Made by a program: the position numbers and the translations under genes
Assembly (NCBI GenBank): GCA_964411255.1
Contig: CAYPKD010000004.1
Location: 13,093-77,092, forward strand
Length of the DNA: 64,000 nucleotides
Direction of reading: 5' to 3'
Origin: an uncultured Gammaproteobacteria bacterium
GTDB lineage: Bacteria; Patescibacteriota; Patescibacteriia; UBA11705; DATKZF01
In this document: positions 6,546-62,134 of the stretch, piece after piece
Numbering within the stretch: the first letter of the stretch is position 1
Layout of the letters: each line of letters opens with the position of its first letter
Notes under the pieces: generated by a model
Databases searched by the model: none
The model's input: the letters and a program-made list of their open reading frames with translations, nothing else
Told to the model about the DNA's origin: nothing

Positions 6546-6620
6546 CCCGCTGCCCTGAACGTCATTCCCGCGGAAGCGGGAATTTCTTAATAGTTTTGTA
6601 TAACCCAAAGCTGCGGTAAT
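6546..6620 (+). repeat. dispersed GC-rich hairpin repeat element, copy 1 (about 75 bp; GCTGCCCTGAACGTCATTCC-hairpin-GGAATTTCTTAATAGTTTTGTATAACCCAAAGCTGCGG)
   Basis: About 85% identity by eye to copies at 61021-61092 (reverse), 52385-52500 (reverse) and 41804-41868. Partial similarity to 59600-59672. Confidence 0.55.
6564..6590 (+). terminator. GC-rich hairpin (ATTCCCGCGGAAGCGGGAAT) plus T-rich tail downstream of mrdA. It is part of repeat element copy 1.
   Basis: Perfect 8-bp stem with GGAA loop, followed by TTCTT. Lies 60 nt after the mrdA stop. Confidence 0.5.
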
Positions 6621-6634
6621 GTATACATATAAAT

Positions 6635-7309
6635 ATGAAAGAAAAACCAAAACAATCACTTGAAAATCAATTGCAAATGGCCCGCCCCAAGCGTGCTGAA
6701 GTTAAGCGTGTCCCTTTGACTCCAGAAGAAAAGGAATTTTTAGGTGAGATTATGGATAAGGCTGTGGCAGCAGAAAAGGCAGGGAAGCTGCAAGAAGCAT
6801 TAGATTTATATACTGATTATAAAAATGAATTATTAAAAATTAAAGAAGAAAAAGAAAAATTTGATAAAATAAAAGAAGAACCAGGCATTAAAAGCCTGAT
6901 TGCTATGGGTTTAGATAGAAAATTTATTGAAGAAAACTTTGATCTGACAAAGCTACCTGAGATTAAATCAAAAGGTGACCTGTTATTTAGTGGCATGAAA
7001 ATTAAAGAATTTCCTAATATAACGGTTAATGGCAATTTGGATTTGGGAAGCTCAACAATTAATAAATGGGATAGCGGGGGATTAATGATTAATGGAGATT
7101 TTATTTTATCTGCCGTAGATACAAAGTCATTGCCAGATGGTATATTTGTTGTTGGAAATGTATATTTGCAGAATTCAACAATACAGGATTTGCCTGATGA
7201 ATTTCATGTTGACAGAGATATATATGTTAAAAATTGTAATGCTAAAGTAAAACAAAAAGCTCAAGTGTTAAAGGTAACTGGAAGAATTAAAGGAAGTGTA
7301 CATAATTAG
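6635..7309 (+). CDS. expanded paralog family member A1: conserved N-terminal QMARPKR/LTPEEK helical module plus variable C-terminal LPxxLxVxG repeat domain
   Basis: N-terminal 65 aa near-identical to 14 other ORFs in the window. C-terminal repeats (..LPDGIFVVGNVYLQNSTIQDLPDEFHVDRDIYV..) and a ..TGRIKGSV tail. Confidence 0.8.
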   Translation: MKEKPKQSLENQLQMARPKRAEVKRVPLTPEEKEFLGEIMDKAVAAEKAGKLQEALDLYTDYKNELLKIKEEKEKFDKIKEEPGIKSLIAMGLDRKFIEENFDLTKLPEIKSKGDLLFSGMKIKEFPNITVNGNLDLGSSTINKWDSGGLMINGDFILSAVDTKSLPDGIFVVGNVYLQNSTIQDLPDEFHVDRDIYVKNCNAKVKQKAQVLKVTGRIKGSVHN

Positions 7310-7337
7310 AAAATTCAAGCTGAAGATTTAAAAATTT

Positions 7338-8048
7338 ATGCATGAAAAAAGTTCAAAATCTTTCGAATCCCAACTCCAAATGGCCCGCCCCAAGCGTGCT
7401 GAGGTTAAGCGTGTGCCTTTAACTCCAGAAGAGAAAGAATTTTTAAGAAAAATTATGGATAAGGCAGTGGCTGCGGAAAAGGCTGGAGATTTGCAGCAAG
7501 CTTTGAATTTATATACGGATTATAAAAATGAATTATTAAAAATTAAAGAAGAAAAAGAAAAAAAAGAAAAAGAAGAAAAAGAAGAACGAGGGGGAATTAA
7601 ATGGACAAAGGAAAAATTAGAAAACTGGATTGCTAGCATTGGAATTGCTGAAGAAGATTTTGTGGAACAATATTTTGATTTATCCAAGTTGCCAAAATTA
7701 GAATCAAAAGGTTCTTTGGATTTCAGCAACCTTATGATTGATATGTTTCCTGCTGATATGAAAGTTAAAGGAACTCTTACGTTGAGTAAATCAGTATTTA
7801 GAAAGGGGTTTGGTTCCGGATTGATCGTTAAAGGAGATCTAATAATGAATCGTTCAGCTATTAGTCATTTACCTAATAATATAAAAATTGATGGTAAATT
7901 AATTTTACGAAATTCAACAGTACAAGATTTACCTGATGATATATACATTGGTTCAGATATTTGGGTTGGAAATTGTAAAGAAAAAGTAATTGAAAAAGCA
8001 GGAAGACTTAAAGCTGAAGGAAAAATTAAAGGTGATGTTAAATATTAA
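7338..8048 (+). CDS. paralog family member A2 (mosaic with A4)
   Basis: Same N-terminal module. Central ERGGIKWTKEKLENWIASIGIAEEDFVE and C-terminal LPDDIYIGSDIWVGNCKEKVIEKAGRLKAEGKIKGDVKY are identical to A4. Confidence 0.8.
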   Translation: MHEKSSKSFESQLQMARPKRAEVKRVPLTPEEKEFLRKIMDKAVAAEKAGDLQQALNLYTDYKNELLKIKEEKEKKEKEEKEERGGIKWTKEKLENWIASIGIAEEDFVEQYFDLSKLPKLESKGSLDFSNLMIDMFPADMKVKGTLTLSKSVFRKGFGSGLIVKGDLIMNRSAISHLPNNIKIDGKLILRNSTVQDLPDDIYIGSDIWVGNCKEKVIEKAGRLKAEGKIKGDVKY

Positions 8049-8056
8049 TATCAAGT

Positions 8057-8764
8057 ATGAAATCAGAAAAAGCTGCACAATCACTCGAATCCCAACTTCA
8101 AATGGCCCGCCCGCGGCGCCATGAGGTTAAGCGTGTGCCTTTAACACCTGAAGAAAAGGGATTTCTCGGCGATATTATGGATAAGGCAGTGGCTGCGGAA
8201 AAGGCTGGAAAACTAGCTGAGGCAATTGAATTTTATACAGATTATAAAAATGAATTATTAAAAATTAAAAATAGGATTGAGAAAGAAGAAAGAGGGGAAA
8301 TAGAATGGACAAAGGAAAATCTGGTGGAGTGGGCAAAAGATATAGGTAAGGATGAAAAATTTGTAGAAGATAATTTTGACTTAACTAAATTACCTAAACT
8401 TGAAACAAAGAGCGATTTGACCTTAGATTTTGCAGTTATAGATAAATTCCCTGCAGCAATGAAAGTTAATGGAACGCTTATTATGAACAATGCAACCATA
8501 AAAAAATGGATTGGAACCAATTTAAGTATTAGAAGAAATTTATTTTTGTTTGGAGCAAAAACTGATTATCTGCCAGATAATACTATGGTCTTTCAAGGCA
8601 ACCTCGATATAAGCCAAAGTTCAATTAAAGATTTGCCAGATGATATCTTTATTGGAGGTAGTATTTCAATTGAAGGCGCAAAGCATGAAAAAAAATTAGC
8701 CCAAAAAGCAAGAGAATTAAAAGCCAAAGAGCAAATTGAGGGAGAAATTATTACTAATATGTAG
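8057..8764 (+). CDS. paralog family member A3
   Basis: Same N-terminal module (MKSEKAAQSLESQLQMARPRRHEVKRVPLTPEEKGFLGDIMDKAVAAEKAG..). Divergent C-terminal repeat region. Tail ..AKEQIEGEIITNM. Confidence 0.8.
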   Translation: MKSEKAAQSLESQLQMARPRRHEVKRVPLTPEEKGFLGDIMDKAVAAEKAGKLAEAIEFYTDYKNELLKIKNRIEKEERGEIEWTKENLVEWAKDIGKDEKFVEDNFDLTKLPKLETKSDLTLDFAVIDKFPAAMKVNGTLIMNNATIKKWIGTNLSIRRNLFLFGAKTDYLPDNTMVFQGNLDISQSSIKDLPDDIFIGGSISIEGAKHEKKLAQKARELKAKEQIEGEIITNM

Positions 8765-8797
8765 TCTGTCGATGAGTTTATTTAACTAAAAATATTT

Positions 8798-9508
8798 ATG
8801 AAAAAAGAACAACAATCATTCGAATCCCAACTCCAGATGGCCAGACCAAAACGATCTGAGGTTAAGCGTGTCCCATTGACTCCAGAGGAAAAGGAATTTC
8901 TGGGTGAGATTATGGGCAAGGCTGTGGCTGCTGAGAAAGCTGGGGAATTGAAAGAGGCTTTGAATTTATATACGGATTATAAAAATGAATTATTTAAAAT
9001 TAAAGAAGAAAAAGAAAAAAAAGAAAAAGAAAAAGAAAAAGAAGAACGAGGGGGAATTAAATGGACAAAGGAAAAATTAGAAAACTGGATTGCTAGCATT
9101 GGAATTGCTGAAGAAGATTTTGTTGAAAATCATTTCAATTTATTTAAATTACCAAAATTAGAATCAAAAGGTTTTTTAAATTTCAGCAACCTAATGATTG
9201 CCACATTTCCAGCCAATATGGAAGTGAATGGAGATCTTATACTGCAAAATGCTGAGGTAAAAAAATGGATTGGCTCTGGATTGAGAATAACAGGAGGTTG
9301 CAAATGTGTCAGCGCAAAAATAAAAAATTTGCCAGAAAGAACTACGATTCATGGTGATCTGTCAATAATAAATTCAACTATTGAGGATTTACCTGATGAT
9401 ATATACATTGGTTCAGATATTTGGGTTGGAAATTGTAAAGAAAAAGTAATTGAAAAAGCAGGAAGACTTAAAGCTGAAGGAAAAATTAAAGGTGATGTTA
9501 AATATTAA
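8798..9508 (+). CDS. paralog family member A4 (mosaic with A2)
   Basis: Same N-terminal module. A middle block different from A2 is flanked by blocks identical to A2. Confidence 0.8.
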   Translation: MKKEQQSFESQLQMARPKRSEVKRVPLTPEEKEFLGEIMGKAVAAEKAGELKEALNLYTDYKNELFKIKEEKEKKEKEKEKEERGGIKWTKEKLENWIASIGIAEEDFVENHFNLFKLPKLESKGFLNFSNLMIATFPANMEVNGDLILQNAEVKKWIGSGLRITGGCKCVSAKIKNLPERTTIHGDLSIINSTIEDLPDDIYIGSDIWVGNCKEKVIEKAGRLKAEGKIKGDVKY

Positions 9509-9516
9509 TATCAAGT

Positions 9517-21823: not shown

Positions 21824-22148
21824 ATATTTATATATTTTCAATTACTAATCACAGAATCATAAAAATATTAAAGTTGTAGGTTATTAGGCTTAGTAGCAAG
21901 TGTGGTTATTGGTTTTAGGCTTTGGTTTATTCTAATGACTAATAAACTTACGTATTTGCTGCCTGAAATTTGTTATTTAATAACTTAATAATACCCTACT
22001 GCGTGCAGTGTGTCAATGAACAGGCCTGGTAATTATACTAAAAATTGAGTATAATCACTTTGCTAGCATTTTTGGAATTTTCATCATATATCAAAATTTA
22101 ATCTAGTTCGTTTTTTATCTAATTTTAGATAAATATGTCTATTGTGCC

Positions 22149-22177
22149 TTGACTAGAAATAAAATTTATGATATAAT
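22149..22177 (+). promoter_or_regulatory. consensus sigma70-type promoter TTGACT-N17-TATAAT upstream of the GC-rich gene
   Basis: TTGACT at 22149-22154, a 17-nt spacer, TATAAT at 22172-22177. GGAGG RBS at 22283-22287 precedes the ATG at 22294. Confidence 0.5.
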
Positions 22178-22293
22178 GGAATATTCGAATGGCTAATTTT
22201 AGCAATTCGTTGAACATATACAAGTTAGCTGAAAAGGTATGGCCATAGGGGCACGTTCCTTAACATAATACTCAAAATATTTTGGAGGAAAAA

Positions 22294-23712
22294 ATGAGTG
22301 TTATTACAATTGATGCATTCACTGGTATGTATGGATTTAAGCTGGCAAACAGTAGTGGAGAACCCATTACGTTTGTCAAAAAGGAGGGACATGTTTTTTT
22401 GGACAATAGACCGTCCAAAGCGATTACTGGTATGATCATCGACGGTGAATACAAGCCGTGGAGTGAGATTGGTGTCGGTCATATGTCAGAGGAAGGTACG
22501 GTCCGCTGTATGCGAGGCCAGAGCTCTGACAGGCCGTGCACCAACGTGCGAAGTGCGGCAGACGTTGTCTGTCTCGATATGTATCCCGTTCTGCTTTGCG
22601 TGGATCATGCCAAAGCGGGTTTGTCCCATGCGCGGTCAAAGTATGGGGATCGAATCATGTTCCGACCTCTCCAATCAAGGCTCGCATTTGAGTTGAGGAA
22701 CAATCAGGTTCAGGACCTGATTGCTTCTGGCGAAGGTGGCATGACGAGAGAGCAGCTGATCAAGGCTTTCTCAAGCGTCAAGGCCACGTACAAGCTGGAT
22801 GGCCGCGGAGGAGTCGATTTTGACTCTGCCGATATAGACATGGATCAACTCGAACTGGTGGCCGAGCAGCATTCGGTTGACGGTTCCAAGGCTGACAATG
22901 CCTCTACCAAGGATTCGTTTTTCCTGGTCGGTGACAACAATGAAGAAGACGAAGAACGTTTCTTCGTTTTCTCCGGGCAGAATGCTTTGGCAGCCAGAAG
23001 CGAAGGATGTTCTTCCTTCCCGCTGTCTGAGGCTCTGCTCTATCACCGCAACGGTTTCAAGATGTGGGAAAAGGTAGAGGCGCTGCTATTCGGAGAAGAT
23101 CCCAAGGGATTTCCGATCAAAGAATTGGTCGAAGAAATCTTCGCGGATCTGCTCAGGCCTTGCCCTGGTGATAAGGACTACAGGGCTGAAATCTGGGTGG
23201 AATATCCCAAGGCCTTGGACTTCAAGGTTCTGGTCAGGGCAGCGGTCAAGGCCGGGGTGCTGCAGGATGGCACCGAGCTGAAAGAAGATGAAATCGACAA
23301 TCTCAAGAGCGATCCTCTTTCGCTCATTCGTGGCAACTACGACGGAAAGACCGTCCGTTGGCATGTGATGCGCAAGAGTCTGGCCTTCCTGGCTGCTAGG
23401 ATTCTCAACAAGGCTCGCGAGGGTTCGAGAAGGCAGCAGCCCCATGCGCGACCGTATCCGCTTTGTAGCGGACTGCCCTATCAGCGCGAGAATATCCGGG
23501 CGAAGGCCAAGGAAGCTCGCGCAACCTGGGATGATCTGGATGCTCATGAGCCGACTGCTGAGGAGCAGGCCAAGAATAAGAGGCGCAACAAGCGTTTTGA
23601 CGACAGGGGCAAGGGTGCGCGACGTCGAGCGCGTCCGGTTCCTCGGAAGAAAACCAAAGCAGAAAAGCAGGCTGAATTGCATGCCGAGTTGGATGGCCAC
23701 AATGCTGGCTAA
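22294..23712 (+). CDS. compositionally foreign (GC-rich) hypothetical protein with a basic Arg/Lys-rich C-terminal tail. The track ORF begins at a TTG at 22282.
   Basis: About 50-55% GC by eye versus about 30% in flanks. Long ORF with SD and consensus promoter. Tail KRRNKRFDDRGKGARRRARPVPRKKTKAEKQ. No family recognised. Confidence 0.6.
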   Translation: MSVITIDAFTGMYGFKLANSSGEPITFVKKEGHVFLDNRPSKAITGMIIDGEYKPWSEIGVGHMSEEGTVRCMRGQSSDRPCTNVRSAADVVCLDMYPVLLCVDHAKAGLSHARSKYGDRIMFRPLQSRLAFELRNNQVQDLIASGEGGMTREQLIKAFSSVKATYKLDGRGGVDFDSADIDMDQLELVAEQHSVDGSKADNASTKDSFFLVGDNNEEDEERFFVFSGQNALAARSEGCSSFPLSEALLYHRNGFKMWEKVEALLFGEDPKGFPIKELVEEIFADLLRPCPGDKDYRAEIWVEYPKALDFKVLVRAAVKAGVLQDGTELKEDEIDNLKSDPLSLIRGNYDGKTVRWHVMRKSLAFLAARILNKAREGSRRQQPHARPYPLCSGLPYQRENIRAKAKEARATWDDLDAHEPTAEEQAKNKRRNKRFDDRGKGARRRARPVPRKKTKAEKQAELHAELDGHNAG

Positions 23713-23732
23713 TCCACACAGCTAACCTCAAT

Positions 23733-23766
23733 CCCCTTGTTTCATAGAAACAAGGGGGTTTAATTT
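23733..23766 (+). terminator. rho-independent terminator (CCCCTTGTTTC-ATA-GAAACAAGGGG plus TTTAATTTT)
   Basis: Perfect 11-bp stem immediately after the stop of the GC-rich gene. Confidence 0.65.
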
Positions 23767-23856
23767 TAAATAATATTTGACAAAATAGTTATAAAAATGT
23801 AAATTAATATAAATTAGTCCACCAAGGCATTTGGGAAATTGGAAAGGAGTTAACAG

Positions 23857-24444
23857 TTGGTAGTTTTGCCAGAAAAGGTTGCCTTGGCTCACAAGCGCTT
23901 CTGGAATGCATTTTTTGTGCTTTCCAGGCAGTACTTGGAGACTAAAATGGGCGTCATATATATTTCATGCACTGTATCTCAATATGACCCCAGAAAGCAG
24001 GTTTCGTATGTATTGATCATTTCAGAGTTTTTTAACAGTACAAAATATTCTGTTAATGATCTTTGTGTTCAGGCTGATCTTACGCAGCTGTTTGAAAGCC
24101 AATCAGAAAATTTGGTCCAAAGATACAGGCACCAGGGAAGAAATTATGTAATATTTTCGCAAAAGCTTCGGGATATTGGCATTGAACCGCATTTATATCC
24201 TGAACAGGTAGCTTTATATAAATTCAGCGGTTCAAATAAAGAACATGATGTTGTAGTTCTGATTCCCACAAATAACGAGGATGTTAGTTATTTGTTAACC
24301 AGGATGGAGCTTAGACCAGATCAAGATGTTGATTTTTCTCAAATTGAGGTCTTATCAGTTGATGATGTAATTCCTGAAGAACAGGTCATATTCTGTCTTA
24401 GGGAATTAAACCATCCTTTTCCAGATGAAAATACTAGAACATAA
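23857..24444 (+). CDS. hypothetical protein (TTG start after AGGAG)
   Basis: ORF track. Promoter-like TTGACA at about 23787 upstream. Confidence 0.35.
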   Translation: MVVLPEKVALAHKRFWNAFFVLSRQYLETKMGVIYISCTVSQYDPRKQVSYVLIISEFFNSTKYSVNDLCVQADLTQLFESQSENLVQRYRHQGRNYVIFSQKLRDIGIEPHLYPEQVALYKFSGSNKEHDVVVLIPTNNEDVSYLLTRMELRPDQDVDFSQIEVLSVDDVIPEEQVIFCLRELNHPFPDENTRT

Positions 24445-36958: not shown

Positions 36959-37888
36959 ATGAAAAATTCTCGCATTATATTCTTCGGTACGCCAGACTTT
37001 GCCATACCAGCTTTAAGAGAACTGGCAGAAAATTTTTCAATTGAAGCGGTGATTACTCAGCCAGATAAACCAAAAGGAAGAAAAAAAGAGCCAATTGCTC
37101 CGCCAATAAAAAAATACGCCTCAACGCGTGATTTTTTAATCCTTCAACCACAAAAATTAGATAAAAAATTTATTGGTCAGCTTGAAAAACTAAAACCAGA
37201 TTTAGGTGTTGTAGTTGCATATGGAAAAATTTTACCTAAGCAAATTCTTGATTTACCAAAACATGGCTGTCTAAATATTCATGCTTCTCTACTTCCAAAA
37301 TATAGAGGCGCAGCTCCAATTCAGGCTGCTTTGCTCAATGGTGATAAAAAGACCGGTATTACCATTATGAAAATTGATAAAGGTTTAGATACTGGAGATA
37401 TTATATCCTCGCAAAGTATTGAAATTCAAAAACAAGATAATTTACAAACTTTACATGATAAACTAGCAGAGCTTGGGGCGCAGCTTTTGATAAAAACAAT
37501 CCCAGATTATATTGCTGGTAAAATTAAACCTCAAAAGCAAGATGAATCAAAAGCCTCAGTCTTCCCTACTATTTCCAAAGGACAAGGTAGAATTTTATGG
37601 AAAAATTCAGCTGAGCATATTTTTAATCAAATACGAGCTTTTACTCCATGGCCAGGCGCATTTACTTTTTATAATAATAAAAAGCTGGACATTATTGAAG
37701 CAGAGCCGGTTGAATGTGGCGAAAATAGACTTATCGGCCAAATCTTTGGGTTTAATAACAAAGTTTTAGTACAGTGCAAGGAAAATTGTTTAGAAATAAA
37801 AAAAGTAAAACTTGAAGGAAAAAAAGAAATTGATATACAAAGCTTTATAAATGGCCATTCAGATTTTATAGGTTTTGAATTAGAATAA
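36959..37888 (+). CDS. fmt: methionyl-tRNA formyltransferase
   Basis: N-terminal IIFFGTPDFAIPAL. Formyltransferase core (..NIHASLLPKYRGAAPIQ..). C-terminal tRNA-binding domain. Follows def. Confidence 0.95.
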   Translation: MKNSRIIFFGTPDFAIPALRELAENFSIEAVITQPDKPKGRKKEPIAPPIKKYASTRDFLILQPQKLDKKFIGQLEKLKPDLGVVVAYGKILPKQILDLPKHGCLNIHASLLPKYRGAAPIQAALLNGDKKTGITIMKIDKGLDTGDIISSQSIEIQKQDNLQTLHDKLAELGAQLLIKTIPDYIAGKIKPQKQDESKASVFPTISKGQGRILWKNSAEHIFNQIRAFTPWPGAFTFYNNKKLDIIEAEPVECGENRLIGQIFGFNNKVLVQCKENCLEIKKVKLEGKKEIDIQSFINGHSDFIGFELE

Positions 37889-37996
37889 TTACTCGGGGAA
37901 TCGCAGATTCCCCTCGGCACACATCTTGCGACGGGAATGGTTGCAGATTTGTTTTATAAATAAAAGAGCAGAAAGTTTGACTTTCTGCTTTTTGAA

Positions 37997-38464
37997 TTAT
38001 TTTGCAGCAGGAGGTTTTAGTCTCTTCTCCATGCGCATTGCCTTATCCAGCTCATCAGCATCATCATCATCGCAAAGGACTGCTTTGCAAACAAGACCCT
38101 TGCATTCAAGCTTATCATAAGTAGTACCTCTGAGCATGACTTCATCATCAGCGCATGCGCCAGTTAAGGAAAGTTCTTTATCAACCTGAGCTCCATTCAA
38201 ATCAATAGAACCCTTGACTCTTACGCCATTTAGCAAAAGAGCGCCTGAAATTGTCATTCCATTTAACAAAAGATTGCCAGCCACTCGAAGACCGCTAAGG
38301 TCAAGGTCACCATCAATCATTGCACCGCTCAGGTTTAATGCTGAGCTGTATGATTTACCACGAAGGTTTAGTGGATCAACCACATGAAAACCTGAAATAT
38401 CTCGAGTTTTAGCTAACTTTCTAATAGCTTCTTCATCAAGTAATTCATGCCGTTTTAGTACCAT
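37997..38464 (-). CDS. pentapeptide-repeat protein
   Basis: Tandem A(D/N)LxG pentapeptides (..LNLSGAMIDGDLDLSGLRVAGNLLLNGMTISGALLLNGVRVKGSIDLNGAQV..). Confidence 0.75.
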   Translation of the reverse strand: MVLKRHELLDEEAIRKLAKTRDISGFHVVDPLNLRGKSYSSALNLSGAMIDGDLDLSGLRVAGNLLLNGMTISGALLLNGVRVKGSIDLNGAQVDKELSLTGACADDEVMLRGTTYDKLECKGLVCKAVLCDDDDADELDKAMRMEKRLKPPAAK

Positions 38465-38501
38465 TTTTGCCTCCTTAGCAATGGGTTTTCAGGGACATAT
38501 T

Positions 38502-41803: not shown

Positions 41804-41868
41804 GCTGCTGCCTGAACTGTCATTCCTGCGTAGGCAGGAATCCAAGTTTAAAAGTGCAGCAGTATTTT
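41804..41868 (+). repeat. GC-rich hairpin repeat element, copy 2 (GCTGCTGCCTGAACTGTCATTCC-TGCGTAGGCA-GGAAT..GCAGCAGT)
   Basis: Shares CTGAAC(T)GTCATTCC plus palindromic GC hairpin architecture with copy 1. Outer arms GCTGCTGC / GCAGCAG are complementary. Confidence 0.5.
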
Positions 41869-49563: not shown

Positions 49564-50271
49564 TTATTTTAGATCAATTTCTCCTTTAATTTTACCTTCT
49601 TTTTTACGTTTTACCAGCTCCTTTATCATTTCTGTTTCATGCTCTTTTATATATACTCTTCCCCCAACATATATATCATCTGGTATTTTTTTATTTTTTA
49701 TTGAAGTTCCGGATAAACTTAGAGATCCTTCAACTCTAAGGCTATTGGGTAAACAATCTATATTTGCGTTCACAAAAGTACAAGTTTGTGTAACATGCAA
49801 ATTAGCTGGCATCTTTTCAACAGTTGAATTTACTAATGATAAATTGCCATTAATGCGTAAATTGTTTGGTAAAAACGATAACTTCATACTTCGTAAGTTT
49901 AGATCTGATTTTGTTTTTATTACTGGTAATTCATCTAATATAAAAGCTGCATCAACATAATTTGCCGCATTTTCCTCCCAGGAATAAATCTGAATTGCCC
50001 AGCTAATTAAATGAGCTCTGGCAACTTTAACGTCTTTAATCTCCTTTTCAACTTTTTTTTCTTTTATTTTAAGCAACTCATTTTTATAATCAGTATAAAA
50101 ATTTAATGCTTCCTGCAATTCTCCAGCTTTTTCCGCAGCTACTGCTTTATCCATAATCTCACCCAGAAAGTCCTTTTCTTCTGGAGTTAAAGGTACACGC
50201 TTAACCTCAGCCCGCCGCGGGCGGACCATTTTTAATTGACTTTCTAATGATTGAGGTTCTTCTGTTTTCAT
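49564..50271 (-). CDS. paralog family member C1
   Basis: N-terminal module MKTEEPQSLESQLKMVRPRRAEVKRVPLTPEEKDFLGEIMDKAVAAEKAGELQEALNFYTDYKNELLKIKE. C-terminal LPNNLRINGNLSL / LPNSLRVEGSLSL repeats. Tail ..KKEGKIKGEIDLK. Confidence 0.8.
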   Translation of the reverse strand: MKTEEPQSLESQLKMVRPRRAEVKRVPLTPEEKDFLGEIMDKAVAAEKAGELQEALNFYTDYKNELLKIKEKKVEKEIKDVKVARAHLISWAIQIYSWEENAANYVDAAFILDELPVIKTKSDLNLRSMKLSFLPNNLRINGNLSLVNSTVEKMPANLHVTQTCTFVNANIDCLPNSLRVEGSLSLSGTSIKNKKIPDDIYVGGRVYIKEHETEMIKELVKRKKEGKIKGEIDLK

Positions 50272-51650: not shown

Positions 51651-52352
51651 TTATGTTATTTTAATATCACCCTTGATATCGCCCTGCTTTTTAAATTTCT
51701 CTATTTCTTTTACCATATCTGGGTCTGATTCACTTACATATACTTCTTCTTCAACATGTAAAGATTCAGGTTCTTTTTTATTATTTATTTCAGCTTTTGT
51801 CATATCTAAAAGACCTCCAATAATCATGGTTTTTGGTAATTGATTAATTTTTACAAATCTTAAAATACAATTTTCATTCGTATATAAAGCATTTGGCATT
51901 TTCTTAATAGTACAGTTGGTTGAAACAAAGCTCCCATTAACATGTAAAACGTTTGGCAAATCCTCAAGTATCATATTATTAAAGGTCATATTTCCTTTTG
52001 TTTGAATTATAGGTAATTCATCTAATACAAAATTTGCCTCTACATATCTCTCAGCTCTTTGTGTTGATAATCCTAGATTTCTTATAGCCCAATGAATTAA
52101 ATCTTGCTCAGTCCATTCCTTTTCTTCCTCTTCTTTTCTTTCTTTTATTTTTAGCAATTCATTCTTATAATCAGTATATAAATCCAAAGCTTCCTGCAAT
52201 TCCCCAGCCTTTTCCGCAGCCACAGCCTTATCCATAATTTTTCCTAAAAATTCCTTCTCTTCTGGTGTTAAAGGAACACGCTTAACCTCAGCACGCTTTG
52301 GCCGGGCCATTTTGAGTTGGGATTCTAAGGATTGTGGTTGTTCTTTTGGCAT
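51651..52352 (-). CDS. paralog family member C4
   Basis: Same N-terminal module. Tail ..KKQGDIKGDIKIT. Confidence 0.8.
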   Translation of the reverse strand: MPKEQPQSLESQLKMARPKRAEVKRVPLTPEEKEFLGKIMDKAVAAEKAGELQEALDLYTDYKNELLKIKERKEEEEKEWTEQDLIHWAIRNLGLSTQRAERYVEANFVLDELPIIQTKGNMTFNNMILEDLPNVLHVNGSFVSTNCTIKKMPNALYTNENCILRFVKINQLPKTMIIGGLLDMTKAEINNKKEPESLHVEEEVYVSESDPDMVKEIEKFKKQGDIKGDIKIT

Positions 52353-52380
52353 AAAGTCATTAGATATTTATCATTGTTCA

Positions 52381-52542
52381 TTAGGGTTTAAAATAGGGCC
52401 GCTGCTTTGGATTACGCAAAACTAACAGAAAGATTTCTCCATTCCGTCCGCCCTTGGCGGACTTCAGTCGAAATGACAAGCGAGGGCAGCGAGCCATTTG
52501 GAGTTGGGATTTGGGTAATTGTGGCTTTTCTTTTATGTTCAT
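52381..52542 (-). pseudogene. truncated paralog remnant: first 18 codons of a family gene (MNIKEKPQLPKSQLQMAR) fused to a copy of the hairpin repeat element
   Basis: Reverse-strand translation matches the family N-terminus up to QMAR and then reads into the repeat element (52385-52500, reverse orientation; about 85% identity to copy 1). Confidence 0.6.
52385..52500 (-). repeat. GC-rich hairpin repeat element, copy 3 (inside the truncated paralog)
   Basis: Reverse complement reads CGCTGCCCTCGCTTGTCATTTCGACTGAAGTCCGCCAAGGGCGGACGGAATGGAGAAATCTTTCTGTTAGTTTTGCGTAATCCAAAGCAGCGG. Collinear with copy 1, including the palindromic hairpin and the TAGTTTTG..CCAAAGC(A/T)GCGG tail. Confidence 0.55.
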
Positions 52543-52548
52543 ACGAAT

Positions 52549-55337: not shown

Positions 55338-55997
55338 TTAAAAACGTTCTTTTATACCTAAAACTCGTCCTGCTCTTAAAGCCTCTAGAGCTGATTTGAT
55401 TAAAGCTTTATTATCTGGGCTTACATAAACTTTACCGTTTACAGTATTGAATTGAGGTAATGATTTTATGTTTAAGCCCCGCAAATCTAGATCACCATTC
55501 ACCTCTAAATGTTCAGGTAATTCTATTATGTTTTTAGAATCTTTTAATGAAAGATCTCCAATAATGTATAAATTCTCAGGTAAATATTCCAAATTATCTT
55601 CATTTTCAATGCTCAATGAGCTATTAATAATAATTTTTCCTGGAAAATCCTCATCAAATTCTACTGCTGAATTCACCCAAAATTTTGCAAATGAAATGTT
55701 TGTCAAATTCGTTTTAACCCAGTCAATAAGCCCTTTCCTGGCTTTTTCAATAATTTCTTGTTTTGACATTGTTTGGCTTTCCTTTCTTTCTTTTATTTTC
55801 AGCAATTCATTCTTGTAATCAGTATAAAATCCCAAGGCCTTTTCTAATTCTCCAGCCTTTTCAGCAGCCACTGCCTTATCCATAATCTCGCCCAGAAACT
55901 TCTTTTCTTCTGGAGTCAATGGCACGCGCTTAACCTCAGCGCGCTTTGGACGGGCCATTTTGAGTTGGGATTCTAAAGATTGGGATTTTTCCGGCAT
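55338..55997 (-). CDS. paralog family member D1
   Basis: N-terminal module MPEKSQSLESQLKMARPKRAEVKRVPLTPEEKKFLGEIMDKAVAAEKAGELEKALGFYTDYKNELLKIKE. LPENLYIIGDLSL / LPEHLEVNGDLDL / LPQFNTVNGKVYV repeats. Confidence 0.8.
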   Translation of the reverse strand: MPEKSQSLESQLKMARPKRAEVKRVPLTPEEKKFLGEIMDKAVAAEKAGELEKALGFYTDYKNELLKIKERKESQTMSKQEIIEKARKGLIDWVKTNLTNISFAKFWVNSAVEFDEDFPGKIIINSSLSIENEDNLEYLPENLYIIGDLSLKDSKNIIELPEHLEVNGDLDLRGLNIKSLPQFNTVNGKVYVSPDNKALIKSALEALRAGRVLGIKERF

Positions 55998-55998
55998 A

Positions 55999-56667
55999 TT
56001 ATTTTACTTGAGTAACTTTACCTATTTGTCCTTTTTTTTCCAATTTTTTAGCTTGATCTAGCAGATCTGTATCAGTTTTTTTAATAAATATATTCATTGC
56101 TACTTTTAGATCATCTGGTAACTCTTTGATATTCGCATTTACAAGATGAAGATCTTTATTAACTACTAGGTTTCTAGGCAAATACTTAAAATCATTCCGT
56201 TCAATAATTAAAGTCCCATCAACAATTAAATGATTTGGTAATCTTTTAATATCATAAACAGCAGGATTGATTCGAAGATCACCTTTTATTTTAAGATGTG
56301 GAAGAGGGGCTGATCTGTCAAACTTCTTCTCTATCCAATTTACAGCAGCTTGTCCTGAAAATCCGACTTCATTATGTACCCAGTCTAATACCTCTTCAGG
56401 AAGATTTAAATCAAAACCCTCATCTGACTTTTTTTTCTTTTCTTGTTCTTTTTTATCTTTTATCCTTAATAATTCATTTTTATAATCAGTATACAAATTC
56501 AAAGCTTCTTGCAATTTCCCAGTTTTTTCCGCAGCTACAGCTTGATCCATTATCTTTCCGAGAAAATCCTTTTCTTCAGGAGTTAAAGGCACACGCTTAA
56601 CTTCAGCGCGCTTTGGGCGGGCCATTTTGAGTTGATTTTCTAATGATTGGGGTTGTTCTTTTGGCAT
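55999..56667 (-). CDS. paralog family member D2
   Basis: Same N-terminal module. LPNHLIVDGTLII / LPRNLVVNKDLHL / LPDDLKVAMNIFI repeats. Confidence 0.8.
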   Translation of the reverse strand: MPKEQPQSLENQLKMARPKRAEVKRVPLTPEEKDFLGKIMDQAVAAEKTGKLQEALNLYTDYKNELLRIKDKKEQEKKKKSDEGFDLNLPEEVLDWVHNEVGFSGQAAVNWIEKKFDRSAPLPHLKIKGDLRINPAVYDIKRLPNHLIVDGTLIIERNDFKYLPRNLVVNKDLHLVNANIKELPDDLKVAMNIFIKKTDTDLLDQAKKLEKKGQIGKVTQVK

Positions 56668-56675
56668 AATTAGAG

Positions 56676-58157
56676 CTAAATTTCTATTACTCTTTTTACA
56701 TATGTATTTTCATCTTTAGCAATGATATACGCCTTATTATCATTAATTGGTACAACATGGTAAATTTTATCATAATCCTCACTAACTTTTTCTCTTTTTT
56801 CATTTACCATAAACCATTTATCACCTTTTTTTGCTTTAAAAACTAGCGTTCCTTCAATATCCTCAACAGAACTAATTTTATCATATTCATCACTAATTTT
56901 TTCACCTTTTTCATTAATTAAAAATTGTTTTCCATCGTTTTCTGCATAAAAAATGATCCTACCTCCAATATCTAATGGATGCCTGACAAAATCATAGTCT
57001 TTTCCAATAATTTCACCCTTTTCATTTACAATGTATTTTTTTTTCTTGATTTTAACTTGATAAAACATAATTCCTGCAACATTGAAAATGAACTCGATTC
57101 CATCATAATCTTCACTAAGTTTTTTGCCTTTTTCATCCACGATAAACCATTTATCATCTTTTTTTGCTCCAAACACAAGTTTGCCCCCGATGTTTTTTGG
57201 AGTACCAATTTCCTCATAATCTTGTTCAAGTTCTTCCCCTTTTTCATTGACGATAAACCATTTATTATCTCTGGTTGCCGAGAAAACAATATTCCCCCCA
57301 ATATTATCCAGATATGAAATCCATTCATATCCTTTACTGATTTTTTCTCCTTTTTCATTAAATACAAACCATTCGCTACCCTGTCTGGCATGGAAAAACA
57401 TTTTATCTTCAAAAAATTGAGGAGGATCAATAGCATTATATTCTTGCCCATATTTACCTTCTTTTTCATTCACCAGAAACCATTTACTACTATTTTTTTT
57501 TGTTTCACAGGCATGAAATACACATTCTCCTTTTACATTCATTAGATTTGAAACAGATGAATAATTGCTGCCAATCTTTTCTCCTTTCTCATTTACTACA
57601 AAGTATTCATCGTTTTTCATTCCACTAATAAATAACTGCCCGGCTATATCAGTAATATGATGTATTTCATCAAACGCTGCTCCTATTCTTTCTCCCTGTT
57701 CATTAACTACAAAACTCTTCTTATCCTGTTCAACAGGAAAAAATAACCTGCCTAGGCTATGCATAGGATTATGAGCAAAGTCATAGCCTTTTCCGATCTT
57801 TCTGTCTTGCCCATAAATAACATAAAATTTGCCATCTTTTTTTGCACTAAAAGCAATTTTACCTTCTATATCTGAAGGCTCATAATATTCTTCGTACTCA
57901 TCTAAATTTATTGTATATTCCTGTTCCTTTTCTGAAATAGATTCCTTTATCTTTAACAATTCATTCTTATAGTCTGTATAAAATCCCAAAGCCTTTTCTA
58001 ATTCTCCAGCCTTTTCCGCAACTACAGCTTTTTCCATAATCTCACCTAAGAATTCTTTTTCCTCAGGTGTCAACGGTACACGTTTAACCTCAGCGCGCTT
58101 TGGACGTGCCATCTTCAATTGACTTTCAAGTGATTGTTCAGTTTGTTCTGCTTTCAT
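56676..58157 (-). CDS. paralog family member D3: N-terminal module fused to about ten WG-like (KWF-variant) beta repeats
   Basis: N-terminal module, then about 38-aa repeats DKWFIVNEKGEKISxDYDxI....IGGxLVFxAKKD. 493 aa. Confidence 0.8.
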   Translation of the reverse strand: MKAEQTEQSLESQLKMARPKRAEVKRVPLTPEEKEFLGEIMEKAVVAEKAGELEKALGFYTDYKNELLKIKESISEKEQEYTINLDEYEEYYEPSDIEGKIAFSAKKDGKFYVIYGQDRKIGKGYDFAHNPMHSLGRLFFPVEQDKKSFVVNEQGERIGAAFDEIHHITDIAGQLFISGMKNDEYFVVNEKGEKIGSNYSSVSNLMNVKGECVFHACETKKNSSKWFLVNEKEGKYGQEYNAIDPPQFFEDKMFFHARQGSEWFVFNEKGEKISKGYEWISYLDNIGGNIVFSATRDNKWFIVNEKGEELEQDYEEIGTPKNIGGKLVFGAKKDDKWFIVDEKGKKLSEDYDGIEFIFNVAGIMFYQVKIKKKKYIVNEKGEIIGKDYDFVRHPLDIGGRIIFYAENDGKQFLINEKGEKISDEYDKISSVEDIEGTLVFKAKKGDKWFMVNEKREKVSEDYDKIYHVVPINDNKAYIIAKDENTYVKRVIEI

Positions 58158-58183
58158 ATTGTTATATGATATATGTTACATGA

Positions 58184-58906
58184 TTAAAGTTTTTCAGGCA
58201 TAAATGATGCCTTTTCCGTTTTCATTAATTCTTTAATATACTTTTGTGCTTTTTTATCTTTTTTTATTGACTCTTCAAGATCCTTTTCAATCTCTGGCTT
58301 AATGTCCATCTCAAATCGTTCAAATGATTTTTCTGATAAATTTTCATCATTTAAAATTTCAATAATTTTCAAACTCTCTTCAGGTAAATTAAAAAAATCA
58401 AGCGAATTATCCTTTTCAACATTATATTTGTCAATCAATATTCTTCTAAATTTTCTCAGACCACCTATTTCAGCCATTGAATCTAAAACGAGCTCTTTTT
58501 GATTAACTACAAAATTTATTTCTTCCTGCCAATGCTGCGGGTCATCAGCCTTAGCCTTAGCCTTTGCCATTGTATATCTGCGAATTAAATAATCTAAAAT
58601 CATTTCTCTTTTATATAATGTTTTAATATTATCAATTATCTCTTCATGTTTTTTCTCCTTTATACGATTTATTTCTTTTTTCCTCTCTTCCTGCAATTTA
58701 TCGTTTATTTTCATTAATTCGTTTTTATAATCAGTATACAAATCTAGGGCTTCTTTTAGTTTCCCCGCTTTCTCTGCCGCCACTGCCTTATCCATTATCT
58801 TTCCGATAAATTCCTTTTCTTCTGGCGTTAAGGGCACACGCTTAACCTCACTCCGCCGCGAGCGGGCCATCTTCAATTGACTTTCAAGTGATTGTTCTGC
58901 TTTCAT
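58184..58906 (-). CDS. paralog family member D4: N-terminal module fused to an unrelated charged helical C-terminal region
   Basis: N-terminal module (MKAEQSLESQLKMARSRRSEVKRVPLTPEEKEFIGKIMDKAVAAEKAGKLKEALDLYTDYKNELMKI). C-terminal part lacks LP repeats. Confidence 0.75.
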   Translation of the reverse strand: MKAEQSLESQLKMARSRRSEVKRVPLTPEEKEFIGKIMDKAVAAEKAGKLKEALDLYTDYKNELMKINDKLQEERKKEINRIKEKKHEEIIDNIKTLYKREMILDYLIRRYTMAKAKAKADDPQHWQEEINFVVNQKELVLDSMAEIGGLRKFRRILIDKYNVEKDNSLDFFNLPEESLKIIEILNDENLSEKSFERFEMDIKPEIEKDLEESIKKDKKAQKYIKELMKTEKASFMPEKL

Positions 58907-58921
58907 ATTGGTTTGAGCAAG

Positions 58922-59557
58922 TTACTGTTCTTCCAATCCCTTTACTCTCCCTTCGTTTATGGCTTTTAGTACAGATTCTCTTAATTTAGTTTTTGATGCA
59001 TTACTAATAACTTTGCAATCAACTCTAATATCATCAGGCAATACTACAATATCAGTATCCAACAAATTTAAATTTCCTCTAACATGTAAATTATTGGGTA
59101 AATCGCCTAATGATGTGCCTTTTAATGAGAATTCTCCATCAATCTCTAAATTTTCAGGCATTTCAGTACAATTTTTTTTATGTTCAATTTTAATAGGACT
59201 ATCAACTATAATTTTTGGATATTTACTAAAATCAACATTAGCATCTGTCCATGATTCAATATTTGTATCTTCTATAAAAATTGATGAAAGCCATTCAATA
59301 AATTTTTGCCTGGTATTTTTTATTTTTTCAATTTGTTCCTTTTCTTCCTTTATTTTATTTAATTCATTTTTATAATCTGTATAATACCCCAAAGCCTCAG
59401 CCAATTTTCCTGCCTTTTCCGCAGCTACAGCTTTATCCATAATCTCACCTAAAAAAGCCTTTTCTTCTGGAGTTAATGGCACACGCTTAACCTCACTCCG
59501 CCGCGGGCGGGCCATTTGGAGTTGATTTTCTAATGATTGTTTTGGCTTTTCTTTCAT
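58922..59557 (-). CDS. paralog family member D5 (track ORF extends to 59596; family-consistent start MKEKPKQSLENQLQMARP at 59557)
   Basis: Same N-terminal module. LPNNLHVRGNLNL / LPDDIRVDCKVIS repeats. Confidence 0.75.
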   Translation of the reverse strand: MKEKPKQSLENQLQMARPRRSEVKRVPLTPEEKAFLGEIMDKAVAAEKAGKLAEALGYYTDYKNELNKIKEEKEQIEKIKNTRQKFIEWLSSIFIEDTNIESWTDANVDFSKYPKIIVDSPIKIEHKKNCTEMPENLEIDGEFSLKGTSLGDLPNNLHVRGNLNLLDTDIVVLPDDIRVDCKVISNASKTKLRESVLKAINEGRVKGLEEQ

Positions 59558-59599
59558 AATAAAGGTAATATATTTCCGCTGATTTGGGATATTCAATTC

Positions 59600-59672
59600 T
59601 GTTAAATAGATCTCTCGACTGCGCCCTTCACAAGCTCAGGGCTTCGCTAGAGATGACAGCTGGACAGCGGTA
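59600..59672 (-). repeat. GC-rich hairpin repeat element, degenerate copy 4 (immediately upstream of array D)
   Basis: Reverse complement CCGCTGTCCAGCTGTCATCTC-TAGCGAAGCCCTGAGCTTGTGAAGGGCGCAGTCGAGAGA. Shares the GCTG(T)CC..GTCAT head and a GC hairpin. Shares 10-11-mers with 27538-27560 and 44770-44782. Confidence 0.4.
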
Positions 59673-59678
59673 TTAAAC

Positions 59679-60158
59679 CTACTTGAGTTTATTAACCTGC
59701 TTTACAATTTCATTAATATCTAAATAATCCTCAAAGTTCTTTCCCTTATATGCCCAGACGATTTCATGATCTGGGTTTATTAAAAATAAAGCTGGTAGGC
59801 TCATTTTTTTATTATTTTTTATCTCAGTTTTCACACCAAGCAGCTCTGTTATATTAAATTCTGGATCAGGCAAAATTGGAAATTTTAATAATAAAAATGA
59901 TTTTAGCACAGCAGTGCCCATTTTATTATCATTTGAAATTGCCAAAGGCTTGGCTTTTAATTTATCTAAATTTTCGTTAAGTTTCATTAAATGTTTTCTG
60001 CACAGACCGCACCATTTGCCTCTGATAAAGGTAATCAAAACCCAGTCATCTTTTTGCCAATTATAAAAATTAAAGATACCCCCTTTAGTATCTTCAAGTT
60101 GCCAATTATTAATTTGTATATTCATATACGATTTATTCGTAACTTTAACAACAATCAT
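59679..60158 (-). CDS. thioredoxin-fold redoxin (AhpC/TSA-like; single CxxC)
   Basis: ..WVLITFIRGKWCGLCRKHL.. CxxC in thioredoxin-fold context. Confidence 0.65.
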   Translation of the reverse strand: MIVVKVTNKSYMNIQINNWQLEDTKGGIFNFYNWQKDDWVLITFIRGKWCGLCRKHLMKLNENLDKLKAKPLAISNDNKMGTAVLKSFLLLKFPILPDPEFNITELLGVKTEIKNNKKMSLPALFLINPDHEIVWAYKGKNFEDYLDINEIVKQVNKLK

Positions 60159-61020: not shown

Positions 61021-61092
61021 ATAATTACTGCGTTAGGTAATACAAAACTATTAGCAAATTCCCACCTTTGCGGGAATGACGGACAGGACAGC
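61021..61092 (-). repeat. GC-rich hairpin repeat element, copy 5
   Basis: Reverse complement GCTGTCCTGTCCGTCATTCCCGCAAAGGTGGGAATTTGCTAATAGTTTTGTATTACCTAACGCAGTAAT. Collinear with copy 1 over about 70 nt. Confidence 0.55.
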
Positions 61093-61093
61093 T

Positions 61094-62134
61094 TTATTTA
61101 TTAATAAATTCTTTTGCTAAATCAATATAATCAGAATATCCATGCTTTTTCATATAATACCACCATTCTACTCCCCAAATATAATATTTTTCAAAACCAG
61201 CTTCTTTTGCATATTCAGTATTTTCTATAAATAATTCCGGACTGAATTTTTCATATTGCTCGATTATTGGCACACTGGTAAATGGTACATTAAACCATGG
61301 TTCCATTTGAAATTCAGCAACTATTACTTTATCTACCCTTTTTTCTGCCAAATAAGCTCTTTTTGAATACCAGGCTGGGGGGCTGGCCCAGTGAAAGTCT
61401 CCAAGTAAAGGATTAGAAACATCGCGATACATTGTAATACCTAAAATATCAGCATATTTTGTAACATTCAGCCAGGTGCTTAATTCTCCAGAATCAGTAA
61501 GCATTATTTGTCTATCTGGATCAAGAGAATGAACCAAATCAATTTCATTTACAAAAATTTCTTTGTTTGGCTTTGGACATCTGCCAAATGGAAATAGCGC
61601 CTCATTTTCAACCTGCCACATATTAATAACCTTTTTATCTTTATATCTATTTACAACTGTCTCAATCATTTCTAAAAGCTCTTTTTCCTTTGTGTCATAC
61701 ATTAAATCCTGCACCCAGTCTGGTTCATAGCATTCTGGCCAGCGAAGCAATTTTCTGCCAACAGCTAATACAACCTTGCCATCTCTTTTTTCTACTTCAT
61801 TGATCATCCAATCTAATTGTTCAAAATTATATTGATTATTTTCAGGCTCAATTTCATCCCAATAAGCGGAAATCCTGACATCTGTTAATTTCAGTTCATC
61901 AAGCATGTTTATAAAAGTATTTTGCCAGTCTAAATGCAATTCCTGGGCAAATCGTGGGCTAAAAGTAACGCCCCACTCTGGATTATTATTTCTCGGCTTT
62001 TCTGGTAGTAATGAATATAAAAAAAAGAAAATTGCCAAAGCAAGTAATATGATCATTACTATTATAAATACTATAAATCTAATTTTAATTTTTTGTGGTT
62101 TTGGTTTTCTTTTTAGTTTTTTCTTTTTCACCAT
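61094..62134 (-). CDS. membrane-anchored hypothetical protein, possible glycoside-hydrolase-like TIM-barrel domain
   Basis: N-terminal basic segment plus TM. Trp-rich ectodomain (..WGVTFSP.., ..YWDEIEPENNQYNF..). Assignment weak. Confidence 0.35.
   Translation of the reverse strand: MVKKKKLKRKPKPQKIKIRFIVFIIVMIILLALAIFFFLYSLLPEKPRNNNPEWGVTFSPRFAQELHLDWQNTFINMLDELKLTDVRISAYWDEIEPENNQYNFEQLDWMINEVEKRDGKVVLAVGRKLLRWPECYEPDWVQDLMYDTKEKELLEMIETVVNRYKDKKVINMWQVENEALFPFGRCPKPNKEIFVNEIDLVHSLDPDRQIMLTDSGELSTWLNVTKYADILGITMYRDVSNPLLGDFHWASPPAWYSKRAYLAEKRVDKVIVAEFQMEPWFNVPFTSVPIIEQYEKFSPELFIENTEYAKEAGFEKYYIWGVEWWYYMKKHGYSDYIDLAKEFINK

Follow-up and report, generated by a model that had tools for sequence, protein, structure and literature searches.

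A truncated paralogue fused to a hairpin repeat element in a tandem gene array of an uncultured bacterium

Introduction

How do the first codons of a gene come to run, in an open frame, into a copy of a dispersed hairpin repeat? The question is raised by a short open reading frame (ORF) of 53 codons, located on the minus strand at 52381..52542 of a 64,000-nucleotide (nt) stretch from an uncultured bacterium (contig CAYPKD010000004.1, positions 13,093 to 77,092; hereafter the window). This ORF lies inside a run of paralogous genes, between the members denoted C5 and C4; it starts as these genes do and then continues as a copy of a structured repeat, the hairpin repeat element, which is also found elsewhere in the window. 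An earlier note, drawn from the letters of the window only, had described it as a truncated paralogue joined to the element at a GC-rich microhomology, and had linked the element to the turnover of the paralogue arrays. From the comparison with related loci, we consider that the locus is, on balance, probably a recombination scar, produced by one illegitimate fusion at an element heading an array and then spread by homologous recombination.

Anatomy of the locus

The ORF is present in the ORF listing with the family-like start attributed to it; it begins with an ATG and encodes 53 amino acids (aa; MNIKEKPQLPKSQLQMARCPRLSFRLKSAKGGRNGEIFLLVLRNPKQRPYFKP). Its start codon is placed 6 nt past the stop of C5 (52549..53256, minus strand), which is the usual spacing in these arrays, and C4 lies on its other side (51651..52352, minus strand). 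Both neighbours are intact family genes according to the ORF listing and to the comparison with homologues: C5 starts 1 nt after the stop of an AMMECR1 gene, with no element in front of it, and C4 is headed by the element copy described below.

Homology to the family is confined to the first 18 codons (52489..52542, minus strand; MNIKEKPQLPKSQLQMAR), hereafter the stub. These 54 nt (52542-52489) are 80% identical to the start of C2 (50941-50991, repeat family D4) and agree with the 5' end of the gene at 8057 at 45 of 54 positions, which makes the stub a remnant of a family gene with 80-83% identity over 51-54 nt; its best local score is 49, the maximum over 300 shuffles being 31. The similarity ends at codon 18, past ATGGCTCGC, where the sequence goes on as TGCCCTCGCTTGTCATTTCG.., and the rest of the broken gene is missing. 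Across an alignment of 29 family members, S8 and E10 never vary, but the window stub reads QLPKS where QSLES is expected; since these residues are altered, the stub is best regarded as a decaying pseudogene. The fused 53-aa ORF was not called by the gene callers in L003 and L004 (related loci are designated here by L numbers), and a protein-database search with the fused peptide retrieved neither a homologue nor the peptide itself.

Directly after the stub comes copy C of the element, of the long-hairpin subtype (97 nt; 52397..52493, minus strand), recognized by covariance model, by nhmmer (2e-16), by its fold and by alignment. From 52491 downward, the element sequence is laid out as CGCTGCCCT..GTCAT..hairpin..CCAAAGCAGCGG, and it comprises a closing stem (CGCTGC/GCAGCG), the GTCAT box, an extended hairpin (inner stem TCCGCC-AAG-GGCGGA) and a conserved 3' segment, TTTTGCGTAATCCAAAGCAGCGG. 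A covariance model, R1, built from seven short-hairpin copies only and from which copy C was left out, detects it at 52397-52493 on the minus strand with 36 bits (E=7.3e-7). The description of the ORF as a truncated paralogue running into an element copy is thus borne out. The plain alignment of 52381-52548 with 6546-6700 that had been suggested as a check fails to bring this out: it pairs the stub with the first gene of the plus-strand array and not element with element, because the hairpin of copy C is approximately 25 nt longer than that of the copy at 6546 (copy A), so that a profile or covariance model is needed.

From the element, the reading frame of the stub continues to a TAA in the leader of C4. 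This long leader (52353..52396, minus strand), which extends from the element to the C4 ATG, contains CTAATGA repeats and stops in several frames. Homologous leaders are found in L124 and L138 and, because the one in L138 occurs without any element, leader and element are separable modules. The leaders before head genes (window 52353-52396; L124 686-732; L126 7804-7852; L138 6255-6295) repeat CTAATGA or TCTAATG, motifs that put stop codons in several frames right before the ATG.

The junction itself reads ATGGCT-CGC|TGCCC and falls within the family motif ATGGCCCGCCC. An alignment of the three junctions with the starts of 15 intact genes and with 10 clean copies of the element delimits an overlap at 52489..52493 (minus strand). 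At the breakpoint, intact genes read ..CAAATGGCCCGC|CC(A/C/G).. and fused copies ..CAAATGGC(C/T)CGC|TGCCC; clean element copies, which have unrelated left flanks, begin (C)CCGC|TG(C/T)CC. The trinucleotide CGC (52489-52491) is common to the gene motif ATGGCxCGC and to the element 5' end CGCTG. As had been proposed, the breakpoint lies in a GC-rich motif, ATGGCCCGC, that overlaps the element 5' end (C)CCGCTG by 3-5 nt, namely CGC (3 nt) in the window, where T stands at 52492, and CCGC or CCCGC (4-5 nt) in the less-mutated copies of a sister lineage. An overlap of at least 3, 4 or 5 nt has a chance probability of approximately 5%, 1.6% and 0.5%, respectively, and for this reason the microhomology, taken alone, is only suggestive.

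Is the element simply inserted into a gene? Past the element, an ordinary array-head leader and a complete gene start are found, as at clean heads, and codon 18 onward is not resumed. An insertion of the element was rejected on this ground, and a fusion or deletion is favoured because a leader and a whole gene follow the element. Furthermore, the window junction and both its flanks are identical in independent assemblies (L003, L004 and six further places), obtained from different samples and with different pipelines (including JGI 3300029258 and JGI 3300018080), which makes a misassembly unlikely.

The junction in a sister lineage

Is this junction a private feature of one genome? Contigs of a sister lineage, a species with approximately 80-85% nucleotide identity to the window (77-88% in the flanks, 80-88% in the flanking genes), carry the same junction, elsewhere in the array, with the same long-hairpin subtype (98.2% identity over 112 nt). 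The window, L001 (stub R1) and L125 (stub R2) share one and the same junction nucleotide, and the 19 nt on its left, AATCCCAACTCCAAATGGC, are identical in many intact paralogues. The sister lineage holds at least two copies of this junction module (stub plus long-hairpin element), on the 5' end of a different paralogue: its stubs MKNISEQSLESQLQMAR and MKNIPEQSLESQLQMAR (R1 and R2) match the beginning of the window's intact C3 at 86-88% identity and come after the C4 orthologue, so that the same module truncates a different paralogue there. In L001, L123 and L141, the order is AMMECR1, clean element, C4 orthologue, stub and element, then one or two further 5' stubs and a C1-like gene; L125 is a variant in which a C2-like gene has the module on both flanks. 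The extra 5' stubs, ATGAAAGAACAGCCACAATCAT, are found past the element once or twice. Within the window and the related loci, the long-hairpin subtype is never seen without a stub. The explanation first offered, a deletion or recombination at microhomology, is therefore kept only in part: a fusion at a short GC-rich homology stands, and a one-off deletion in this genome does not, as the sister species shares the junction.

In these extra scars, located downstream of the long-hairpin element, a stub of seven codons with its leader, TTAATTTATATATACTTATGAAAGAACAGCCACAATCAT, is observed in one or two tandem copies in the sister lineage (L001 1516-1630; L141 91-165; L125 950-880, minus strand), and they vary between samples.

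Copy C is moreover a mosaic. Up to approximately CCAAAGCAGCG, it matches the long-hairpin subtype of the sister lineage, and its 3' side, with the long leader and the C4 5' region, is 82% identical to the head in L124 (L124 670-941, corresponding to window 52414-52140); the switch lies in this conserved 3' segment. Orthologous element copies elsewhere are only approximately 77% identical (after the PBP gene) and approximately 89% identical within the element (between the glycosyl hydrolase and DUF389 genes, where the whole 123-column alignment is 95% identical), and the 98% identity of the long-hairpin subtype is hence an outlier.

Differences in array content between the lineages take in whole gene blocks, not the element alone. 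Element copy B together with genes B1-B4 (3.7 kb, window 56019-59688) is absent from the sister lineage (L139 4040-4170), where the B5 orthologue begins 2 nt past the AhpC gene. After the CysRS gene, L126 (7684-7836) has an element and four family genes, whereas L138 (6198-6295) has a single family gene, with a long CTAATGA-repeat leader, another small GC hairpin and no element. The link that had been drawn between element and array turnover thus holds, but the clearest evidence for it is the mosaicism, consistent with homologous exchange, and not the microhomology event on which it had first been based.

The hairpin repeat element

What is the sequence to which the stub is joined? Five copies of the element are present in the window (approximately one per 13 kb). 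Besides copy C, two are visible by eye: copy A, which separates the PBP gene from the opening gene of the plus-strand array (6546..6618, plus strand; 90.5 bits with model R1), and copy B, which likewise separates the AhpC gene from that of the B array (59577..59669, minus strand; E=6e-4 with R1, 6e-14 with nhmmer). The model added two further copies, one in the gap between the glycosyl hydrolase and DUF389 genes, away from the family (61023..61095, minus strand), and a short one whose two neighbours, the ECF sigma and VWA genes, both run antisense to it (41804..41867, plus strand; E=4.5e-13). Copies A, B and C have in common a closing inverted repeat CCGCTGC...GCAGCGG, the GTCAT box, a hairpin of variable length and a conserved 3' segment, TTGnATAAYCCAAAGCAGCGG. 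The element is found at three of the three family-head gaps of at least 60 nt, versus two of the 27 other gaps of the window (p~0.0025 by our own hypergeometric count), and in other loci it heads arrays after the PBP, AMMECR1 and CysRS genes.

The predicted stems covary. In the seven-copy alignment, 95% of the stem cells are paired, versus 24-54% when the partner columns are slid by one to three positions. The closing stem, which provides terminal inverted repeats of 6-8 bp, has 90% of its cells paired and compensatory changes at two pairs (C-G to U-A and U-A to C-G); the hairpin shows a compensatory change from C-G to U-A, and the long hairpins differ at their base, with ATTCC/GGAAT, ATTTC/GAAAT and ATCTCT/AGAGAT. 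Overall, approximately 12 distinct copies were found, in both orientations. Four of them are antisense to the neighbouring genes; the related loci hold three antisense copies, one of which stands directly upstream of a family gene (L135 16411-16502). A DNA pattern run over the metagenome collection matched three contigs, all from the sister lineage, and a pattern scan of viral contigs gave no match. From these features, the element may be described as a dispersed, structured intergenic repeat, enriched at array heads and similar to miniature inverted-repeat transposable elements (MITEs) or REP sequences.

Several other identities were considered for the element. No hit was obtained for the whole window against Rfam 15 at gathering thresholds, targeted E-value scans of copies A and C gave sub-threshold, chance-level matches only, and a tRNA/tmRNA search found none. 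A riboswitch or other sense-strand RNA of the 5' untranslated region was rejected, as there are antisense copies and copies without a family neighbour. A hammerhead-like three-way junction was rejected owing to the absence of the CUGANGA and GAAA cores, and a larger RNA structure over stub, element and leader because this region folds no better than its shuffles (z=+0.5). A general role as terminator or promoter was likewise set aside, simple consensus scans disagreeing between copies: the terminator scan picks out copy A, the promoter scan copy B, and neither picks out copy C on its own strand. The motif TTGNATAAT shows no enrichment in the window.

Four of the five window copies run in the sense of the local leading strand. 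The cumulative GC skew of the window peaks at approximately 37000-38500, where the genes switch from the plus to the minus strand and converge; because of this peak and this switch, the region looks like a replication terminus.

The gene family and its arrays

In the window, which is AT-rich (approximately 32% GC), the family forms three runs of paralogues encoding proteins of approximately 210-256 aa. According to the ORF listing, five genes lie at 6635-10287 (plus strand), five at 55338-59557 (minus strand; the B array) and five on the minus strand around the fusion, namely C5 (52549-53256) and C4-C1 (49564-52352). The proteins start with M..QSLESQL(K/Q)MARP(K/R)R in all family genes, and approximately 250 nt of 5' sequence are highly similar from gene to gene (repeat families D1, D2 and D4). 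The family is restricted to 57 clusters (P0001-P0057) among 5.8 billion proteins. Pfam returned nothing above threshold for these proteins, the only matches being sub-threshold MIT hits at the N-terminus. The AlphaFold model of a family protein consists of an N-terminal helical domain or bundle and then a short beta-solenoid (predicted local distance difference test score of 88), a fold with no significant neighbour in the PDB. From protein to protein, the helical N-terminus is conserved and the beta-solenoid C-terminus varies. The family may comprise lineage-specific variable surface or interaction proteins.

The region of the breakpoint stands out by its composition. The 18-nt patch around the junction motif (ATGGCCCGCCCGCGGCGG or ..CCAAAGCG..) has 72-94% GC in 13 of the 14 window genes with the motif, and only 67% in the gene at 58157. 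It spans codons ~15-22 of the family genes (e.g. 6677-6700, 9562-9585 and 50205-50228) and uses GCC-CGC codons; elsewhere in the window, CGC represents 7% of the arginine codons and GCC 18% of the alanine codons. As read from the sequence, the patch can form a 7-bp GC hairpin in several paralogues (GCCCGCC-CGC-GGCGGGC). Such a composition suggests that the patch is conserved at the nucleotide level.

One family member departs from the common architecture: the gene at 56676-58157 (minus strand) encodes 493 aa, the C-terminal part of which is made of approximately seven tandem repeats of 111 nt (37 aa) and not of a beta-solenoid, with a weak HTH_45 hit as its only match. In L134, another assembly of the plus-strand array region, two genes (8653-9192 and 10001-10579) are called truncated (179 and 192 aa); their products are identical over their length to those of the intact 236-aa window genes 7338-8048 and 8798-9508, and the difference represents either a strain-level pseudogenization or an assembly or frameshift difference.

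Apart from the arrays, the window contains at 22000-24000 an island of 44-50% GC against the background of approximately 32%, which possibly represents foreign DNA. It holds a 476-aa ORF (22282-23712, plus strand) without any Pfam or PHROG family and with only a sub-threshold NCBIfam match to rad14 (E=0.002, 17.9 bits for a cutoff of 113).

Origin of the fusion

How, then, could the fusion have been made, and how could it have reached two lineages? In the history that we favour, a family gene would have been broken after codon 17/18, in the GC-rich patch, and joined to the 5' terminus of the hairpin repeat heading the next run of family genes, most likely by a RecA-independent deletion or a template switch between direct repeats of 3-5 nt beside GC-rich stems. 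Stable stems beside breakpoints favour slippage-type deletions; here, both breakpoints would be beside such stems, because the patch hairpin and the element stem adjoin them. The resulting module would offer family 5' sequence on its left, including the 19 nt identical in many paralogues, and on its right the conserved element 3' segment, a leader and the start of another family gene. By way of these flanks, the module could then be moved or copied, through homologous recombination, unequal crossing-over or gene conversion, within arrays and between co-occurring lineages, which would bring the same junction to different array positions, with different stubs. At present, the element would serve as portable homology for the reshuffling of arrays.

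Several points weigh against this history. The pre-fusion parent was not found, as the searchable data contain neither an intact intervening gene nor a stub-free long-hairpin element; likewise, no intact version of the locus, which the earlier note had suggested looking for in relatives, was found there, the C5 orthologues being identical copies only. The size of the microhomology is fixed only approximately, at 3-5 nt. The import of a head fragment would leave the same picture as a deletion, the same junction with different stubs in two lineages could result from repeated site-specific events, and the 98% element identity could reflect strong functional constraint and not recent exchange. The comparison draws on only some 12 distinct copies of the element, which come from a single group of related metagenomes. 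Finally, the mobility of the element finds no direct sign: no direct repeat that could be a target-site duplication is found consistently around 10 clean copies, no transposase family was recognized among the approximately 25 window products scanned against Pfam (a scan that was not exhaustive), and no empty and filled orthologous sites of the element were found in the available loci. Owing to these three negative results, the MITE-like label is one of architecture.

Among the other explanations, import is the one that survives best, although we judge it rather unlikely. A piece of DNA bearing an array head (element, leader and gene 5' part), possibly that of another strain, would have entered a family gene inside an array: homologous recombination within the conserved sequence coding for the N-terminus would have secured one of its ends, and the other would have been joined by means of the CCCGC microhomology. 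The stub would then be what was formerly the beginning of the downstream gene, and the event would not have removed any complete gene. Such an import would be in keeping with the family 5' sequence found on both sides of the module, and with the 98% identity of the element between lineages that elsewhere reach 80-88%, a contrast that points to a recent transfer. The similarity (82%) of the C4 5' region and long leader to the head at the other sister locus, L124, points the same way, as does the GGCTCG variant of the window stub, found also in the sister C4 orthologue P0002. However, the sister stub is C3-like while the bodies that come after it are C1-like or C2-like, which means that gene bodies are lacking in that lineage, and the window stub is not clearly nearest to any C4-type 5' end, its best matches being the genes at 8057 and 50988.

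That the identical junctions are independent, programmed events seems improbable. A recombinase dedicated to the task, or else a structure-specific enzyme, would recombine the element or its cassette with the invariant patch of the family genes (ATGGCCCGC), as in a shufflon or in the recombination proposed for Neisseria dRS3. The identity of the junction nucleotide in three contexts with different stubs argues for such events, and so do the patch itself, a rare-codon island of 72-94% GC apparently conserved at the nucleotide level in a genome of 32% GC, the enrichment of the element at array heads, and the near-identical inter-lineage block, which ends sharply at the element 3' terminus. Yet the long-hairpin subtype occurs only with a stub and the left 19 nt are common to many paralogues, for which reason a single origin followed by homologous exchange needs fewer assumptions. 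In addition, no reciprocal product (a 5'-truncated gene starting from codon 18) is seen in the window or the related loci, the Pfam scan of window products revealed no recombinase any more than a transposase, the sole integrase seen (L136) is not linked to the element, and clean copies have unrelated left flanks. A more specific version, in which the patch that every family gene has at codon 15-20 (ATGGCCCGCC..) and the (C)CCGCTG terminus of the element would be the partner sites of a dedicated recombination process, appears slightly more doubtful still; by analogy with shufflons and the proposed dRS3 exchange, to which it is close in logic, this process would repeatedly fuse, cap or re-head paralogues. 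The corresponding programmed shuffling of the arrays of a beta-solenoid family is just as doubtful.

No more probable than independent programmed junctions is a functional unit, in which the stub would be an upstream ORF tuning the downstream genes via the hairpin, or the element a cis-regulatory RNA, terminator or promoter. All three stubs indeed keep an ATG at the normal spacing and a frame open through the element, the element is more conserved than its surroundings, and most copies are in the sense orientation upstream of family genes, with a TATAAT-like box (TTGnATAAT) and a hairpin, copies A and B scoring as terminator and promoter, respectively. Against this, four of the approximately 12 distinct copies are antisense to their neighbours, including the one directly upstream of a family gene, and the consensus scans are inconsistent, with copy C again scoring as neither. 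The window stub lacks invariant family residues, the peptide past the junction differs with the leader, the whole region folds no better than shuffled sequence and no Rfam family matches.

Least probable by far is a chimeric join at a repeat in this metagenome-assembled genome: the sister contigs L123 and L125 do end exactly in the module (L125 having the same 123 nt at both ends), which marks it as a repeat that confuses assemblers, but the window junction and its flanks recur unchanged in independent samples and pipelines, and L001, L002 and L141 read through the sister module into unique sequence on both sides.

Comparison with known systems

The recombination scar that we favour would be nothing unusual as an event: illegitimate recombination is known to leave such products in tandem gene families. 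The locus resembles other short-homology events in tandem arrays by its intact 5' end at the normal position, the abrupt loss of homology, the 3-5 nt shared, the GC-rich hairpin sequence at both breakpoints and the decay of residues in the remnant. It differs from them in that a sister species has the scar too, elsewhere in its arrays, and in that there are several copies, as would be the case for a module spreading by homologous exchange.

The closest functional analogy, without membership, is provided by the NIME of Neisseria, small GC-rich inverted repeats (dRS3, ATTCCCNNNNNNNNGGGAAT, with the 20-bp consensus ATTCCCN8GGGAAT) that lie beside hypervariable loci and are proposed to promote recombination as well as the exchange of adjacent genes (PMC1797815). 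The element is similarly a small intergenic inverted repeat associated with variable genes. The short hairpins of two of the five window copies, ATTCCCGCGGAAGCGGGAAT (copy A, 6564-6583) and ATTCCCGCAAAGGTGGGAAT (61057-61076), fit the dRS3 consensus exactly, whereas other copies depart from it (ATTCCT..AGGAAT, ATTTC..GAAAT, ATCTCT..AGAGAT). Unlike dRS3-RS-dRS3 arrays, however, the element copies are all solitary, of 65-100 nt with an outer closing stem, and occur in an unrelated, AT-rich and uncultured host in which no dRS3-targeting recombinase was seen. The resemblance of the hairpins may be a coincidence or may reflect a widespread hairpin type.

MITEs and other dispersed repeats (Correia/CREE, REP/BIME, ERIC, RUP and BOX) are intergenic, occur in both orientations and have terminal inverted repeats. 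The element is like them in its CCGCTGC/GCAGCGG termini, its internal hairpin, its subfamilies and its position upstream of genes; it differs from a MITE in that its clean copies show no target-site duplication; no autonomous partner was recognized among the window products scanned, and no empty and filled sites were demonstrated. REP/BIME sequences are built on a palindrome of 20-40 nt with a GTAG box, are associated with a RAYT gene and reach a high copy number. By contrast, the element has a GTCAT box, measures 65-100 nt and is present in low copy number, and the window products that were scanned include neither a Y1 transposase nor a RAYT gene. Lastly, copy A matches the Rfam family FtrB (Francisella small RNA B, RF02748) weakly, at 24.9 bits (E=0.02) and through the hairpin GUCAUUCCCGCG-loop-CGGGAAU; however, the gathering score of this family is 66 bits, the hairpin alone matches and copy C gives no match.

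Conclusion

The stub, by itself, is a routine pseudogene scar, the value of which is to mark a very fast turnover of the arrays. The interest of the locus lies mostly in this speed and in the repeat found at the array heads, a small, structured and previously uncatalogued element that sits both at these heads and at recombination breakpoints. The likeness to the repeat-flanked contingency loci of Neisseria points to what may be a general means, for small-genome uncultured bacteria, of diversifying a family of probable surface or interaction proteins.

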